Made by a program: the position numbers and the translations under genes
Shown here: in pieces, positions 4,441-37,058 of the stretch
How the letters are laid out: the number at the start of each line of letters is the position of its first letter
Numbering within the stretch: position 1 is the stretch's first letter
DNA from: an uncultured Campylobacteraceae bacterium
GTDB lineage: Bacteria; Campylobacterota; Campylobacteria; Campylobacterales; JALSKU01
Length of the DNA stretch: 64,000 bases
NCBI GenBank assembly: GCA_964556545.1
Contig: CAZKWE010000009.1
Coordinates: forward strand, 17,448-81,447
Direction of reading: 5' to 3'
The notes under the pieces: generated by a model
What the model was told of the DNA's origin: nothing
What the model saw: only the letters and a program-made list of their open reading frames with translations
Database searches by the model: none

Positions 4441-4450
4441 TTGGTATAAT
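4441..4450 (+). promoter_or_regulatory. extended -10 promoter (TTGGTATAAT) driving the repeated leader, copy 1
   Basis: TGnTATAAT match lies 7-8 nt upstream of the first nucleotide conserved between the two leader copies. A similar box sits at the same position in copy 2. Confidence 0.5.
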
Positions 4451-4457
4451 CAAATGA

Positions 4458-4616
4458 AACAATCATGTTTCAAAAAACACAAACAAAAATAAAATCATGA
4501 TTGTTTCTCTCGCCGACAGGTGTAGCATAAGTTTTACCCCACAAAATTTTAAAATTTTGTTGGGACCCCAAAGTGATAGGAATTTTTGCTGGAATCCATT
4601 TCCGGCAAAAAGGAGA
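4458..4616 (+). promoter_or_regulatory. structured leader / candidate cis-regulatory RNA, copy 1
   Basis: About 95% identical to 22867..23026. It has four predicted hairpins, stem substitutions are mostly wobble-compatible, and it ends in AAAGGAGA. No ORF is conserved between the copies. Confidence 0.5.
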
Positions 4617-4670
4617 ATTTAAGGTGAAAAACCGATATAATGAGGTCTCATAATATTTAGGCAGAAAAAA

Positions 4671-6568: not shown

Positions 6569-7641
6569 ATCATCTCTTTTGCAAATTTTCTGACTTCTTT
6601 ATCAACTTCAAAAATATCATTAAAATTTTGTAAAGATATATCTTGAAATTTTTCATATGAAGAGAGTGTTATCTTCGAAATATCAAAAAACGATATATCC
6701 CCATTTAAAAAAGCTTCTACCCCTATCTCATTGGCTGCATTTATCACGACTCCTGCTTGAGGATTTTTAAGAACCTCATCTTTTATCTGCCATATCGGAT
6801 ACCTTTTTTCTTCAATTTTTTTAAAACTTAACTCTTTTATATCCAGCAGGTTGATATTTGATACAATTTTATGCGAAGGCTCAGACCCCAAAAGAGCATA
6901 TGATATAGGCAATCGCATATCTGCTCCTGCAAAATGGGCAGTTGTGCTTCCGTCTTTAAATTCCAAAAGCGCATGAATAATAGAGTTTTTTTCGATAACC
7001 GCATCAACACTGTCCGTATCAAAAAGCCATTTTGCCTCTAAAAGTTCAAAAAGCTTATTTGTCATTGTCGCACTGTCTATACTTATCTTTTTGCCCATTT
7101 TCCAATTCGGATGATTTAAAGCATTACTTGCTTTTTGATTTTTTATATCAGATATATCCATATCTCTAAAAGGACCTCCGCTTGCAGTCAGGATAATCCT
7201 CTTTATTGTTCTGTCGTTTAGCATATACCATACGGCAAAATGCTCGCTATCTATGGGGATAATTTTTGAACTATCTACAAAAGCTCCGGCAACTACCAAA
7301 CTCTCTTTATTTGCAAGAGCCAGTTTCTTATCCAGTTTTAATGCTTCAAGAGTAGGCACAAGACCCAAAAAACCGACCAGAGCATTTACAACCAATTTGC
7401 TTTTGGATATATTTATAGCTTCAAGTATTCCCTCTTCCGCATAAAAAACTCTATCATGTTTCACATAAGGAATTAACTCTTTTTTTGCTACTGCTACAAA
7501 CTTGGGACGAAACTCTTTTATTTGAGTATTTAAAAGTTTTATATTGCTTCCTGCTACCAGAGTTTCTACTTCAAGATTAAACTCTCTTGCTATATTTAAA
7601 ACATTAACCCCGATAGAGCCTGTGCTGCCAAGAAGTATCAA
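6559..7641 (-). CDS. dxr: 1-deoxy-D-xylulose-5-phosphate reductoisomerase
   Basis: 360 aa with [17 protein letters not shown] and [21 protein letters not shown] motifs. Confidence 0.9.
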
Positions 7642-20351: not shown

Positions 20352-21535
20352 GTCTTAATTTAACCGCTATACTTCAACCAAAAAATCTTGATGAATTTAT
20401 CGGTCAAAGCCATATATTGAGTAATGACAAGCCTCTTTATAAGCTTATAAATAAAAAAGAAATTCCTCATATGGTATTTTTTGGCCCCCCGGGATGCGGC
20501 AAAACCACACTTGCCAAAATCTGTGCTTCACGATTGGAAAGTTCATTTCACTACCTTGATGCTACAAATCTCAAAGTAGAAGATATAAGAAAAATATTAT
20601 CAAAAAATACTCTTTTAAAACCACTTATCTTCATAGATGAAATACACAGACTATCAAAAAATCAACAAGAAGTTCTACTTTTGCCGATGGAAAGAAAAAA
20701 CTGTATCATCATAGGAGCAAGTACGGAAAATCCTTATTACTCTTTGACTTCGGGCATAAGGTCACGAATGATGCTGTTTAAATTCAAACCGCTAAACAAA
20801 AAAGAGCTTGAGAGTATTCTTGAAATGGCAATCCGAAAATTTGGTTTTAAGATTGAAAATGATGCAAAAGAGTATCTTTTGCATACAAGCGGCAATGATG
20901 CCAGAAGCATGTTAAATCTGATAGAATTTGCACTTGTAATTGAAAAAAATATTACACTAAAAACTCTAAAATCTCTTAAAGATATGCCTTCAAAAGAAGG
21001 AGTAAATTCAAAAGAGACACACTATGATCTTATAAGTGCACTTATAAAAAGTATAAGAGGAAGTGATATAGATGCCTCTTTGTATTATCTTGCAAGGATA
21101 ATTGAAGCCGGAGAAAAAGCAGAGTATATAGCAAGAAGACTTGTTATCCTCTCAAGCGAAGATATAGGAAATGCAAACCCGAATGCATTGAATTTGGCAA
21201 CCAATACACTAACTGCCGTTGCCCATATAGGATATCCGGAAGCGAAGATCATATTATCGCAATGTGTCATATATCTTGCATCATCACCAAAATCAAACAG
21301 CAGTTATAAAGCTATAAAAAATGCTCAAAAATATATAAAACAAAATACTTTAAAACCCATACCGAATCATTTAAAACAAAATTCCGAGGATTATCTTTAT
21401 CCTCATGATTTTGGCGGATATATAAAGCAAGAGTATATGAAAGATAGTGTAAAATTTTATAAAAATAATAAAATAGGCTTTGAAAAAACTCTAAATGAGT
21501 GGCTTAAAAAATTAAAAACGGAGACAAACAATTGA
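20348..21535 (+). CDS. rarA: replication-associated recombination protein A (AAA ATPase)
   Basis: 395 aa with Walker A GPPGCGKTT, FIDEIHR, and the C-terminal MgsA region (HYDLISALIKSIRGSD.DA.LYYLARI). Confidence 0.85.
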   Translation: MSLNLTAILQPKNLDEFIGQSHILSNDKPLYKLINKKEIPHMVFFGPPGCGKTTLAKICASRLESSFHYLDATNLKVEDIRKILSKNTLLKPLIFIDEIHRLSKNQQEVLLLPMERKNCIIIGASTENPYYSLTSGIRSRMMLFKFKPLNKKELESILEMAIRKFGFKIENDAKEYLLHTSGNDARSMLNLIEFALVIEKNITLKTLKSLKDMPSKEGVNSKETHYDLISALIKSIRGSDIDASLYYLARIIEAGEKAEYIARRLVILSSEDIGNANPNALNLATNTLTAVAHIGYPEAKIILSQCVIYLASSPKSNSSYKAIKNAQKYIKQNTLKPIPNHLKQNSEDYLYPHDFGGYIKQEYMKDSVKFYKNNKIGFEKTLNEWLKKLKTETNN

Positions 21536-22866
21536 ATATAGCAATCATAGGTGGCGGTATAAGCGGACTTACCACTGCATTTTACATAAAATACTTCAGT
21601 CCGCAAACGAAGATAACACTTTTTGAAAAAGAAGCTTATCTTGGCGGAAAAATGCATACGGTTCAAAAAGACGGTTTTTTTATAGAAGAGGGTAGCAATG
21701 GATTTTTATCCAATAAACCTGACACTTTGGAGCTTGTAAAACTTAGCGGATGCAAAGATATACTTTTAAAAAGCAGTGATAATGCGAGAAAAAGATTTAT
21801 TTATGATAAAAAGCTTGAAGTTTTACCCGAATCTCCAAAAGCATTTTTAACAACTTCTCTTCTTAGCCTAAAAGGAAAACTTAGAGTTTTATGGGAACCA
21901 TTTGCATTTGCTAAAAAAGATGACGGTGATGAAAGTCTGCAATCATTTGGTTACAGAAGAGTAGGAAAAGAGATGACTGATGTTTTTTTGGATGCTATGG
22001 TTGCAGGAGTTTATGCTTCAACTCCATCAAAAATATCAGCCCCGGCAGCATTTCCGCTTGTAGTCAATCTGGAAAAAAAGTATGGTTCTCTTTTTAAGGG
22101 TATGCTTGCAAAAAAGAAAAAAGAAGCAGGGCCGGGCGGAGTTTTAATGAGCTTTAGAGGCGGAGTCAGCTCTTTTATAGAAAAACTCTCATTATGTATT
22201 GATATGAATATCATAAAAGATACACAAATTACAAGCTTGCAAAAAGATAAAAATGAGTTTGTTATAACTTCGGACAATATAAAAATGCACTTTGACAAAG
22301 TTGTACTTGCCACTCCGGCTTACAGTACGGCGAATATTTTAAAAGAGTTGGCTCCGGATTTATCAAAAGAGTTAGAAGAGATAGAGTATTCGCCGATATC
22401 TATAGTGGCAACAGGTTATGAAAAACTATCAAATGATTTAAACGGTTTTGGTCTTTTAACAACCACAAGAGCTAAAAAAAGTATTCTTGGTATTCTTTGG
22501 GACAGTTCCATATTTGACGACAGAGCCCAATCAAACAAAAAGCTTCTTAGGGTCATGATAGGCGGACAAAGAGATAAAAAATTAGCTTTAAAAGATGAAA
22601 ATGAACTTTTGACAATAGCATTAAATGGTATAAAAGAGACTATGGCAATAGATAAAAAACCTGATTTTTACTATATAAAAAGATGGGAAAAGGGGATACC
22701 GAACTATGCTGTAGGCCATATAAAAAAAGTGGATAAAATTTTTAATATGGCTAAAAATATAGATGGTTTATATCTTAATTCAAATGCATACAAGGGTATA
22801 GGTTTAAATGATTGTGTTAGCAATTCAAAAAAGTGTGCTTTGGAAATAGTTGGTAAAAATTCTTAA
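21532..22866 (+). CDS. hemY: FAD-dependent protoporphyrinogen oxidase-like protein (HemY/PPOX family)
   Basis: 444 aa with the N-terminal dinucleotide fold IAIIGGGISGLT, E...LGG motifs and PPOX-like length. TTG start. Confidence 0.65.
   Translation: MNIAIIGGGISGLTTAFYIKYFSPQTKITLFEKEAYLGGKMHTVQKDGFFIEEGSNGFLSNKPDTLELVKLSGCKDILLKSSDNARKRFIYDKKLEVLPESPKAFLTTSLLSLKGKLRVLWEPFAFAKKDDGDESLQSFGYRRVGKEMTDVFLDAMVAGVYASTPSKISAPAAFPLVVNLEKKYGSLFKGMLAKKKKEAGPGGVLMSFRGGVSSFIEKLSLCIDMNIIKDTQITSLQKDKNEFVITSDNIKMHFDKVVLATPAYSTANILKELAPDLSKELEEIEYSPISIVATGYEKLSNDLNGFGLLTTTRAKKSILGILWDSSIFDDRAQSNKKLLRVMIGGQRDKKLALKDENELLTIALNGIKETMAIDKKPDFYYIKRWEKGIPNYAVGHIKKVDKIFNMAKNIDGLYLNSNAYKGIGLNDCVSNSKKCALEIVGKNS
22851..22860 (+). 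promoter_or_regulatory. extended -10-like box (TGGTAAAAAT) driving the repeated leader, copy 2
   Basis: It occupies the same position relative to the conserved block as TTGGTATAAT in copy 1, and lies inside the last codons of the hemY-like gene. Confidence 0.4.
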
Positions 22867-23026
22867 AACAATCATGCTTCAAAAAACACAAATAAAAATA
22901 AAAATCATGATTGTTTCTCTCGCCGACAGGCGTAGCATAAGTTTTACCCCACAAAATTTTAAAATTTTGTGGGGACCCCAAAGTGATAGGAATTTTTGCT
23001 GGAATTCATTTTCAGCAAAAAGGAGA
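22867..23026 (+). promoter_or_regulatory. structured leader / candidate cis-regulatory RNA, copy 2
   Basis: About 95% identical to 4458..4616. Its 3' AAAGGAGA is the SD for the ATG at 23035. Confidence 0.5.
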
Positions 23027-23034
23027 TTTTAAAA

Positions 23035-24245
23035 TGAAATATATCTTTTTTATTTTTTTGCCGGTTTTTGTATTTGCAAATGTACTTCAAGATGTCATAG
23101 ACAAAGCAAAACCATACTCCGTAATAGAACTCAAAGACGGAATTTACAAAGGAAATATAGTTATAAACAAACCTTTAAAAATCTTGGCAAAACAAGGGGC
23201 AAAGGCTATTATCGATGCAGACAAAAAGGGCAGTGTCATACTTTTGAAAAGTTCGAATATAACTTTACAAAATCTCATCATAAAAGGAACAGGTCACAGA
23301 AAAGAGATATTTGATAGTGCGATTATAGGCGAAAAGATAAATAACATAACTATAAAAAATTGCAAAATTACCGACTCTCTTTACGGTATAAATATCTCTA
23401 TGGCAAATAATATAAAAATTATCTCAAATACAATCTCTTCAAAAGATGAAAAAAAGCCTTTAAGAGGAGACGGTATAAAGTTTTGGTATGTAAACAATTC
23501 AAAGATTATAGGAAATACTTTTTTAAAAGTAAGAGATATACATTTTGAGAGATCCGATAATAATATCATAAAAAATAACCGTTTCTTATACAATAGATTT
23601 GCAACCCATATAGAGTTTGGTAAAAATAACCTTATTGAAAATAACTTTTACAGATACAATTCGGTCGGTATTTTACTTGAGGGTACGACAAAAATAAAAA
23701 TTATAAAAAATAAAATTCTAAATTCAAACGGCATGGCAGCCATAGGAGCACTTTTCAGAGGCGGAAATCATATAATTTTTCAAAATAATATACTCAAATA
23801 CAACAGAGAAGGATTATATATTGATGCAAAACCTTCCAAGCTTGAAAAATTTAAAAGAAAAATAATCAATAATGAGATAAGTTTTAACTTGCAAGCCATA
23901 CACTTTCATGCAATCATTGCCAACAATATTATAACATTCAATAAAATTCATGACAACCTTTATGATATAGTAAAAGATATAACAGGATATAAAAATTTAA
24001 ACAATAAGGTAGAATACAATTATTGGGGTCAATACAAAGGATTTGATACAAATTATGACAATATAGGAGATACCCCTTATATTATAAAAAGATATTTTGA
24101 CAAACTTTACAGTTATAACAATAAAATAAAATTCTTTTACGGCAGTACTGTTATGGCAGTAGTGGATTTTTTATGTGAAATAGCTCCATTTACCAAACCG
24201 GAAATACTCCTTGTGGATAAAAAACCTGTATTTAAGGATAAATGA
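23035..24245 (+). CDS. NosD-family periplasmic right-handed beta-helix protein
   Basis: Start moved to ATG 23035 (MKYIFFIFLPVFVFA signal peptide, SD AGGAGA 8 nt upstream). Has a NosD-like N-terminus (LQDVIDKAKP..VIELKDGIYKGNIVINKPL), repeated N..I.NN beta-helix units and a C-terminal GDTPY motif. Confidence 0.7.
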
Positions 24246-36951: not shown

Positions 36952-37058
36952 GCACTTCTCTTCAGATGGCTGCGGCACATAAACTCACAGGGTGCTCTGC
37001 TGCGTTCCCGCCCTGAAGCATTGTCCTGTAAGTCTATTGCACAGGTCTGAAGAGAAGC
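36952..37058 (-). ncRNA. ffs: signal recognition particle 4.5S RNA
   Basis: GC-rich island in AT-rich DNA. The minus-strand RNA folds into one long hairpin closed by GCUUCUCUUCAGA/UCUGAAGAGAAG(U)GC. Its apex, CAGG-GCG-GGAA-CGC-AGCA, matches the domain IV pattern of E. coli 4.5S RNA (CAGG-UCC-GGAA-GGA-AGCA). A TGGTACAAT -10 box lies on the minus strand at 37093-37101. Ends are approximate. Confidence 0.75.

Follow-up and report, generated by a model that had tools for sequence, protein, structure and literature searches.

A dispersed repeat of about 170 nt fused to gene starts in an uncultured Campylobacteraceae bacterium

Repeats which carry a ribosome-binding site (RBS) and a start codon and are fused to the starts of genes are rare. 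A review names only REP2 and the Borrelia IR repeats and treats their spread as an open question (PMC3184786). REP2 of Neisseria, also known as CREN, comprises 120-150 bp, occurs in 23-26 copies, lacks terminal inverted repeats (TIRs) and contains two internal stem-loops as well as a promoter, an RBS and an ATG (PMC3184786, PMC3898611, PMC9031163). It is fused to the starts of open reading frames (ORFs) of coordinately regulated genes; its origin and mode of spread are unknown (PMC3184786). IR-A of Borrelia likewise provides promoter, RBS and ATG, is located directly upstream of genes and contains two internal inverted repeats near its 5' end (PMC3184786). Here we describe a new repeat family of this rare but known kind. 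Two of its copies are located in a stretch of 64,000 nt from an uncultured Campylobacteraceae bacterium (assembly GCA_964556545.1, contig CAZKWE010000009.1, positions 17,448 to 81,447), hereafter called the window. Copy 2 separates the gene hemY from a gene encoding a NosD-like protein, and copy 1 lies next to a gene encoding an EamA/DMT transporter (Table 1).

Among described repeats, REP2/CREN and IR-A come closest to the element. It resembles REP2/CREN in its small size, its tens of copies, the lack of TIRs, the internal stem-loops and the 3' RBS and initiation codon fused to unrelated ORFs. Neisseria belongs to another phylum, and a relation in sequence is not expected; the likeness is one of described architecture, and the promoter and the contact-induced coordination reported for REP2 have a candidate counterpart at most in our element. 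Compared to REP2 the element adds filled and empty alleles, a defined AAA^TGAAA junction, a 5' stop codon, tandem and short forms and insertion inside operons. IR-A and IR-B of Borrelia are low-copy and plasmid-borne, whereas the present repeat is chromosomal and found in many copies at stop/start junctions inside operons. Taken together, the element is very probably a dispersed repeat which is non-autonomous, has been mobile recently and is specific to its lineage. It comprises about 170 nt, has no TIRs and contains four internal hairpins (H1 to H4).

Table 1. Features of the repeat, its two loci and other elements mentioned in the text (positions refer to the window).
Feature	Position	Strand	Description
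Copy 2 of the repeat	22864..23034	+	T[A]AAA-CAATC...GGAGATTTTAAA-A; nhmmer E=2e-60; 97.7% identity to the 19-copy consensus
Copy 1 of the repeat	4455..4624	+	within the 5' region of the EamA gene, directly 3' of the native AAATGAAA
H1	22866..22916	+	predicted fold; 11-bp inverted repeat AAACAATCATG / CATGATTGTTT; 29-nt A-rich loop with TAAAAT-like box
H2	22921..22932	+	predicted fold; 4-bp hairpin CGCC-GACA-GGCG
19-mer GTAGCATAAGTTTTACCCC	22932..22950 (copy 2), 4522-4540 (copy 1)	+	equals the end of the tmRNA tag (V-A-stop) plus the start of the next hairpin
H3	22947..22974	+	predicted fold; perfect 28-nt palindrome CCCCACAAAATTTTAAAATTTTGTGGGG
H4	22993..23021	+	predicted fold; 12-bp hairpin TTTTTGCTGGAA-TTCAT-TTTCAGCAAAAA, directly 5' of the Shine-Dalgarno sequence; most variable stem
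Portable translation-initiation module	23020..23036	+	AAGGAG (23020-25), 8-nt spacer, ATG; the same module starts 11 unrelated genes
Protoporphyrinogen oxidase, HemY-type (upstream gene)	21532..22866	+	TIGR00562, 310 bits; its stop codon is formed by bases 1-3 of the element
NosD-family beta-helix protein, 403 aa (downstream gene)	23034..24245	+	PF05048, PF13229; TIGR04247 298 bits vs cut-off 300
Extended -10 box TGGTATAAT, native to the EamA locus	4442..4450	+	flank; conserved in L077, L078, L079 and L081-L083, all without the element
EamA site, empty allele			TGGTATAATCAAAA-T[G/A]AA[G/A]-AACCGATATAATGAGG
EamA site, filled allele (window)			TGGTATAATCAAA-TGAAA-[CAATC...GGAGAATTTAAGG]-TGAAA-AACCGATATAATGAGG
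SRP RNA, bacterial small	36956-37053	-	63 bits vs gathering score 40; sole Rfam family found in the window

Copies, insertion sites and downstream genes

Copy 2 and the region around 4441-4616 share a near-identical block of approximately 175 nt (MAFFT), and this pair is the largest direct repeat within the window. Judged from the sequence, 22864-23034 and 4455-4624 appear to be the best boundaries; between them, 162 of 174 aligned positions (93%) are identical. A hidden Markov model built from both copies gave exactly two matches in the window (nhmmer, E about 1e-60 each). These results bear out the initial annotation, in which the region preceding the NosD-like gene had been described as another copy of the element at 4441-4616. 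Its statement that the conserved block adjoins the hemY stop also holds, with the start of the block placed at the stop codon TAA itself (22864-22866), whereas the last base of the block is the A of the NosD-like ATG.

Further copies were retrieved from metagenomes with the exact 19-mer given in Table 1, which matched 68 loci. About 20 of these originate from the metagenome Ga0256914, which also holds both window loci (L013, copy 2; L028, copy 1), and carry the full element within otherwise unrelated flanks. Nineteen aligned copies are 95-100% identical to their own consensus. Allowing for a possible pairing of contig-end halves, there are at least 18 insertion sites in the same organism. At least nine contigs terminate within the element, as is typical of a repeat that breaks short-read assemblies. 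Seven of them are JGI contigs; the others are L008, a contig of an NCBI metagenome-assembled genome (MAG) which encodes an identical NosD protein and begins inside the element, and the JGI contig L084 from another sample, which begins two bases after the first base of the element. At least 18 near-identical loci in unrelated flanks, together with filled and empty alleles between close strains (see below), are the hallmarks of a dispersed mobile repeat.

Variant forms comprise tandem pairs (L014, L072), 5'-truncated copies (three in all, among them L024 and L046) and a copy with a deleted H1 loop (L043). In the short form H3 is missing and TTT takes the place of 45 nt (L014, L046, L072), the H3-less junction reading GCGTAGCTTTAGTGATAGG. 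One locus upstream of a CmoA-like methyltransferase gene was assembled in two forms in one metagenome: a full and a short copy in tandem (L014, 9455-9733) and the short copy only (L046, 8532-8664). This suggests a copy-number polymorphism within the population.

A scan of 185,579 species genomes with the internal 18-mer ACCCCAAAGTGATAGGAA yielded three matches in unrelated organisms, which we take as chance. The host species is therefore either outside the GTDB representatives or has a representative without that 18-mer. No copy was found in viral contigs (pattern scan), in plasmids or phages (blastn) or in the fetched loci of relatives.

At the EamA locus both alleles of one site were observed. 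It is filled in the window and in L028. Four strains with near-identical EamA and with flanks essentially identical to those of the window lack the element (L079, from the NCBI MAG GCA_054029715.1; L081 and L083, both from JGI; L082, from ENA), as do EamA homologues with 87% and 82% identity (L077, L078). The empty site has the short form TATAATCAAAA-T[G/A]AA[G/A]-AACCG. The copy at the nosD locus, by comparison, is found in two other assemblies as well, i.e. in the MAG behind L079 (contig L008) and in the metagenome behind L081 (L084). Since these strains share the nosD copy and have an empty EamA site, the nosD copy is the older and the EamA copy the newer insertion.

The interval from the native -10 box to the EamA start codon (ATG 4671) contains, in the window as in L079 and L081-L083, a 9-codon frame resembling an upstream ORF (window 4624-4670, [A/G]TG AAR AAC CGA TAT AAT GAG GTC TCA TAA). 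It begins about 5 nt past the TATAAT box and may be leaderless. Among L079 and L081-L083, one strain has ATA instead of ATG in this frame, and in three of the strains 9 nt are duplicated in tandem (GCAGAAAAA) directly ahead of the EamA start. In more distant relatives EamA starts at the promoter-proximal ATG (forms of 300-313 aa).

The nosD locus was compared to the loci of NosD-like homologues with 80%, 64% and 62% identity (L001-L003). The closest relative, L001, has the same gene order (MgsA-like AAA, hemY, nosD, MFS transporter, nrdD). Its junction reads hemY-TAA-AA-GTG-AAA (nosD), containing neither the element nor a Shine-Dalgarno (SD) sequence comparable to that of copy 2. The two other loci have gaps of 30-48 nt, different contexts and no element. 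In L002 (8388-10788; 64% identity) the NosD-like gene has heptose/LPS genes upstream and a ParE toxin pair as well as two Y1 transposase genes downstream; as it has no MFS partner there, the pairing of NosD-like and MFS genes seen in the window is not universal.

As read from the sequence, copy 2 supplies the TAA of hemY, a strong SD at a spacing of 8 nt from the next ATG, and the first base (A) of that start codon. The initial annotation had rightly recognised the terminal AAAGGAG as the SD of the NosD-like gene (AAAGGAG, 8-nt spacer, ATG). It had placed the ATG at 23035, a frame which contains 42 stops; the true start is 23034. The extension of the ORF to GTG 22983, considered a probable artefact in the same annotation, indeed runs through the element, and one public gene call has this 420-aa form (P0242, 22983-24245). 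The 403-aa form has an N-terminus resembling a signal peptide and is found in other assemblies. We propose that the insertion of the element has separated hemY from the NosD-like gene, two genes that directly adjoin each other in the closest relative, and that the NosD-like/MFS pair would now be translated from the SD of the element, while its transcription probably still occurs by read-through from hemY. An abutted junction would thereby have been replaced by an SD-driven start behind stable hairpins, which could alter translation level, coupling or mRNA stability.

The fusion to gene starts is not confined to this locus. Every copy with a readable 3' side ends with ...AAAAAGGAGATTTTAA-RR-TG-AAA, and in 11 of 15 readable copies this 3' end (AAAGGAG-N8-RTG-AAA) opens a real, unrelated gene. 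The orientation of the element is always that of the downstream gene. The genes started in this way encode an AtpI-like protein (PF09527), a 4HBT thioesterase, an M20 peptidase, a cysteine-synthase-like PALP enzyme, Cas2, CmoA-like and PrmC-like methyltransferases, an HhH-GPD glycosylase, a protein of at least 156 aa without Pfam match, an ABC permease and the NosD-like protein. At the cas2 locus (L033, about 7444-7616, minus strand; PF09827) the copy lies directly upstream of the gene and gives the start codon, and the upstream frame ends at the TAA of the element. A functional theme common to the downstream genes is not recognisable. The proposal of the initial annotation that the element marks export or envelope functions via a shared signal is incompatible with this list, which ranges from Cas2 and PALP to methyltransferases, peptidase, thioesterase, glycosylase, permease and AtpI-like protein.

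Junctions and mode of movement

Among 18 copies the junctions follow a sharp logo, AAAT[G/A]AAA|CAATC ... TTTTAARR|TGAAA, with the 5' motif present in 15-18 of them and random sequence outside. In five copies, the one at hemY among them, the T[G/A]A terminates a long ORF on the upstream side. At copy 1, the pentamer T[G/A]AA[G/A] occurs once in the empty alleles and TGAAA stands on both sides of the insert, which fits a 5-bp target duplication. The 5' pentamer shows linkage to a marker inside the element, at a distance of 12 nt: all 7 copies with TAAAA have CATG, and 5 of the 9 copies with TGAAA have CATA (Fisher p=0.03). This linkage suggests that the pentamer moves together with the element. 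Most economically, the element can be described as T[G/A]AAACAATC...TTTTAARR, placed directly before TGAAA in AAA^TGAAA.

In this genome with 32% GC, AAA^TGAAA is the usual context of a start codon. The element would thus sit between the first base and the TG of the start codon. Its 5' T[G/A]A would stop the upstream frame and would be followed by H1-H4, AAAGGAG and an 8-nt spacer ending in R. With this layout the upstream gene is left terminated and the downstream gene gains a strong SD and a rebuilt RTG-AAA start. The window contains 15 AAATGAAA motifs, of which only 2 mark the start of a gene. The association of copies with starts therefore calls for a target longer than this motif or for the selective loss of insertions within genes. 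The surviving copies may be fused to gene starts because insertions elsewhere in genes were lost by selection.

For the transposition itself we favour, with low confidence, either a hairpin-dependent single-strand route of the HUH type or a site-specific recombination on the T[G/A]AAA core, with the enzyme supplied in trans. IS200/IS605, IS91 and Helitrons are HUH single-strand transposons, and Helitrons insert between A and T. The element resembles these families (including the PATEs of IS200/IS605) in the absence of TIRs and of a clear target-site duplication (TSD), in its end hairpins and in its strand specificity. Viewed on the other strand, insertion would take place 3' of TTTCA, with an element ending TTT[C/T]A and an A/T insertion point as in Helitrons. 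The end hairpins H4 and H1 are, however, unalike and the cleavage-like pentamer of the right end lies within a stem, so that the likeness serves as a lead only.

Several observations weigh against this description of the element and its movement. The pentamers on the two sides differ in seven copies (TAAAA 5', TGAAA 3'), unlike at copy 1, where a 5-bp TSD (TGAAA) fits; every model produces a one-base discrepancy in the A-run at copy 1; and the ancestral junction of copy 2 has to be guessed as a TTGA-type overlap. No transposase or partner element with matching ends was found, the search covering a small part of the genome, and tblastn with Y1 transposases gave no match in the window. The dissimilarity of H1 (AAACAATCATG...) and H4 (TTTTTGCCGGAA...) does not fit the end recognition of IS200/IS605, and the lone Y1/RAYT-like gene near a copy (L024) has its own, unrelated GC-rich repeats. 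Transcription at the copies may occur by read-through or from an internal promoter. Finally, the retrieval by an exact 19-mer under-samples the diversity and the host range of the family.

The gene in L024 (1-170, minus strand) encodes a RAYT/Y1-transposase-like N-terminus (MARRQRIESAGFHHIYNRGV), is preceded by the GC-rich motif AAAGGGCCAGGGGTCA in two tandem copies and is separated by 1.2 kb from one of the 5'-truncated copies of the element. Gene and motif probably represent a separate REP/RAYT system in the same genome. REP and REPIN sequences are GC-rich palindromes of 20-40 nt usually located downstream of genes, in contrast to the present element, which is 170 nt long, AT-rich, equipped with four hairpins and always upstream of and co-oriented with a gene.

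The repeat shares with MITEs such as Correia/NEMIS, and with ERIC, RUP and BOX, that it is non-coding, about 100-200 bp long, multi-copy, polymorphic between strains and potentially able to alter the expression of neighbours. Classic MITEs have TIRs and a fixed TSD (TA for Correia), whereas our element is asymmetric and strictly co-oriented with genes. Its 5' end (T[GA]AAACAATCATG) does not match the reverse complement of its 3' end (YYTTAAAATCTCC), H1 lies wholly within the 5' third, and TGAAA on both sides at copy 1 stands against TAAAA/TGAAA in seven copies.

Other routes were dropped. The GTTRRRY core of an integron attC site is absent, and a Xer/dif-type insertion, a retron and a group II intron remnant were considered and rejected as well. 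For a LINE-like 5' truncation by target-primed reverse transcription there is nothing beyond the three 5'-truncated copies.

A more far-reaching idea, which we consider unlikely, is that of a new kind of intercistronic cassette which is mobile in bacteria. It would target start codons at their first base (AAA^TGAAA), either through a single-strand route that depends on hairpins or through one so far undescribed, and would seamlessly replace stop, SD and start in dozens of housekeeping genes. The core of such a cassette would be captured from, or mimic, the tag stop and helix 5 of transfer-messenger RNA (tmRNA, see below), and the genes would receive a common translational or RNA-decay input.

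Alternative readings of the repeat

The strong hairpins predicted in the initial annotation were reproduced, as the folds far exceed those of shuffled sequences. Compared to dinucleotide shuffles the z-scores for RNA are -6.2 (copy 2) and -4.4 (copy 1), and for DNA -5.4 (copy 2). The H1 loop differs in length among copies, and H1 is absent from 5'-truncated copies (variants in L024, L046, L043 and L064). None of 21 pairs was changed on both sides across the copies, which are very similar to each other, and the stem substitutions (about 7 tolerated to 5 disruptive, counted by hand from the alignment) are as predicted by neutrality. Support for the modelled hairpin structure is thus thermodynamic only.

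As to promoters, the initial annotation had regarded a -10-like box (22851-22860, TTGGTAAAAA) as part of the repeat. Conservation in the 18 copies begins only 8 nt before CAATC (AAAT[G/A]AAA), and the corresponding box of copy 1 is the native EamA promoter, which is kept where the element is absent. Both boxes thus belong to the flanks. Since the sequence upstream of AAAT[G/A]AAA is unrelated among copies, the TTGGTA likeness of both window copies is a coincidence of the flanks. A sigma-70 consensus scan revealed no plus-strand promoter inside either copy; by eye, the TAAAAT box in the H1 loop is a candidate, and it varies among copies.

Could the repeat nevertheless serve the host? It might have been co-opted, or have spread, as a regulon-building cassette similar to REP2/CREN through a common promoter, operator or post-transcriptional handle, so that one input would reach all downstream genes. 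Candidates are the arms of H1 with the TAAAAT loop, mRNA-stabilising 5' hairpins, and the GGA motifs at AUAGGAAU and within the SD as CsrA-type sites. Such a role would not conflict with mobility; it departs from the main reading only in the host function that it assumes. The architecture corresponds to the descriptions of REP2 (PMC3184786) and CREN (PMC9031163), the copy at the nosD locus is kept in three strains or assemblies, and the folding z-scores are strong. Furthermore, H4 of the window copy differs from the nosD locus in L008 and L084 by three transitions which keep the pairing (C-G to U-A, G-C to G-U). These two contigs terminate inside the repeat, however, and their H4 may derive from other copies during assembly. 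The downstream genes without functional theme, the lack of a sigma-70 promoter on the plus strand of either copy, the variable TAAAAT box and the H1 loop deleted or truncated in several copies argue against a regulatory cassette, as does the ratio of about 7:5 among the stem substitutions without two-sided pair changes. On balance we regard a host function of this kind as doubtful, though worth keeping in mind.

The repeat also contains an ORF of 41-45 codons (MIVSLADRRSISFTPQNFKILWGPQSDRNFCWNSF.AKRRF), whose TAA ends 1 nt before the RTG and which might encode a small protein translated in coupling with the start downstream. No copy interrupts the frame, whose open length is unusual in DNA with 32% GC; it persists even in the short form, where the indel amounts to 42 nt net and is in frame. 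However, the variants across copies comprise 3 synonymous and 12 non-synonymous changes without excess at third positions, and the ATG of the ORF has no SD and is located in the 3' arm of H1. With this neutral pattern of substitution a coding ORF was rejected, and a small protein gene is very improbable.

The model derived from the initial annotation takes the element for a cis-regulatory leader of the riboswitch type which has its own promoter and senses a signal common to export and envelope genes. A stable multi-hairpin fold beside an SD would be in line with this, as would a weak 5-bp pairing CUCUC:GGAGA in the minimum free energy (MFE) structure of copy 2; such an anti-SD pairing is missing in the copy 1 fold. 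A conserved leader should accompany its genes, but the element is absent upstream of the NosD-like orthologues (L001-L003) and of the EamA orthologues (L077, L078), i.e. in all relatives examined, and it is polymorphic between near-identical strains, in which the EamA site is empty. It precedes at least 11 unrelated genes, and with an identity of 95-100% its copies do not behave like paralogues of a riboswitch; the promoter box belongs to the flank, and covariation was not found. A scan of the whole window at Rfam gathering scores detected the SRP RNA as the sole family and none at the repeat; in a permissive scan of 22750-23150 the top match reached 22.5 bits, compared to a gathering score of 54. 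The initial annotation had itself named a known Rfam family or a repeat as identities that would speak against a leader; a family in Rfam was not found, but the identity as a repeat is established. A riboswitch is highly improbable; copy 2 is a selfish or regulatory insertion and does not represent a leader through which export genes would sense a common signal.

The 19-mer used for the retrieval is shared with tmRNA. About 45 of the 68 metagenome matches belong to tmRNA genes (confirmed by ARAGORN; e.g. L009, L017, L034, L058) from related Campylobacterota, their tag being ANNTNYRPAYAVA*, and the tmRNA of the host itself was absent among the matches. In tmRNA the 19-mer consists of GTA GCA TAA and 10 nt reaching into the next hairpin, which we read as helix 5, and the block is invariant in 41 tmRNA genes. 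Both tmRNA and element have a hairpin opened by CCCC 6 nt past the UAA, and the 19-mer spans the boundary of the module missing in the short form. Singleton matches (L011, L063) illustrate that some chance matches occur at such a database size; a chance match landing in tmRNA of the same phylum is unlikely by a rough estimate (1e-3 to 1e-5). No likeness beyond the 19-mer was detected by local alignment and blastn-short on both strands (81 of 500 shuffles as good for the left flank, 495 of 500 for the right), and the element lacks the tRNA-like domain, resume codon and tag frame of ssrA. That the repeat is a tmRNA-derived fragment or pseudogene, or a chimera of assembly, is extremely improbable: the exact match to the invariant block and a best weak Rfam match over the segment to tmRNA (5 bits; gathering score 47) are outweighed by the end of the likeness at the 19-mer, by the absence of any tmRNA detectable by ARAGORN in the window and by the independent assembly of the element in data from ENA, NCBI and JGI, where it is embedded in long contigs (193 kb, 54 kb).

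Implications for annotation and for the family

Spurious ORFs (22850-23032 and the NosD call of 420 aa) and broken MAG contigs are accounted for by the repeat, which also cautions against reading near-identical leaders as riboswitches. Being young, polymorphic between strains, sharply delimited at its junctions and located inside operons, the family is a clean system for studying how such cassettes move and to what extent they rewire the initiation of translation and the coupling within operons, in a genome that is compact and AT-rich. If the idea of an intercistronic cassette were true, the origin and the spread of REP2-type repeats would become experimentally tractable.

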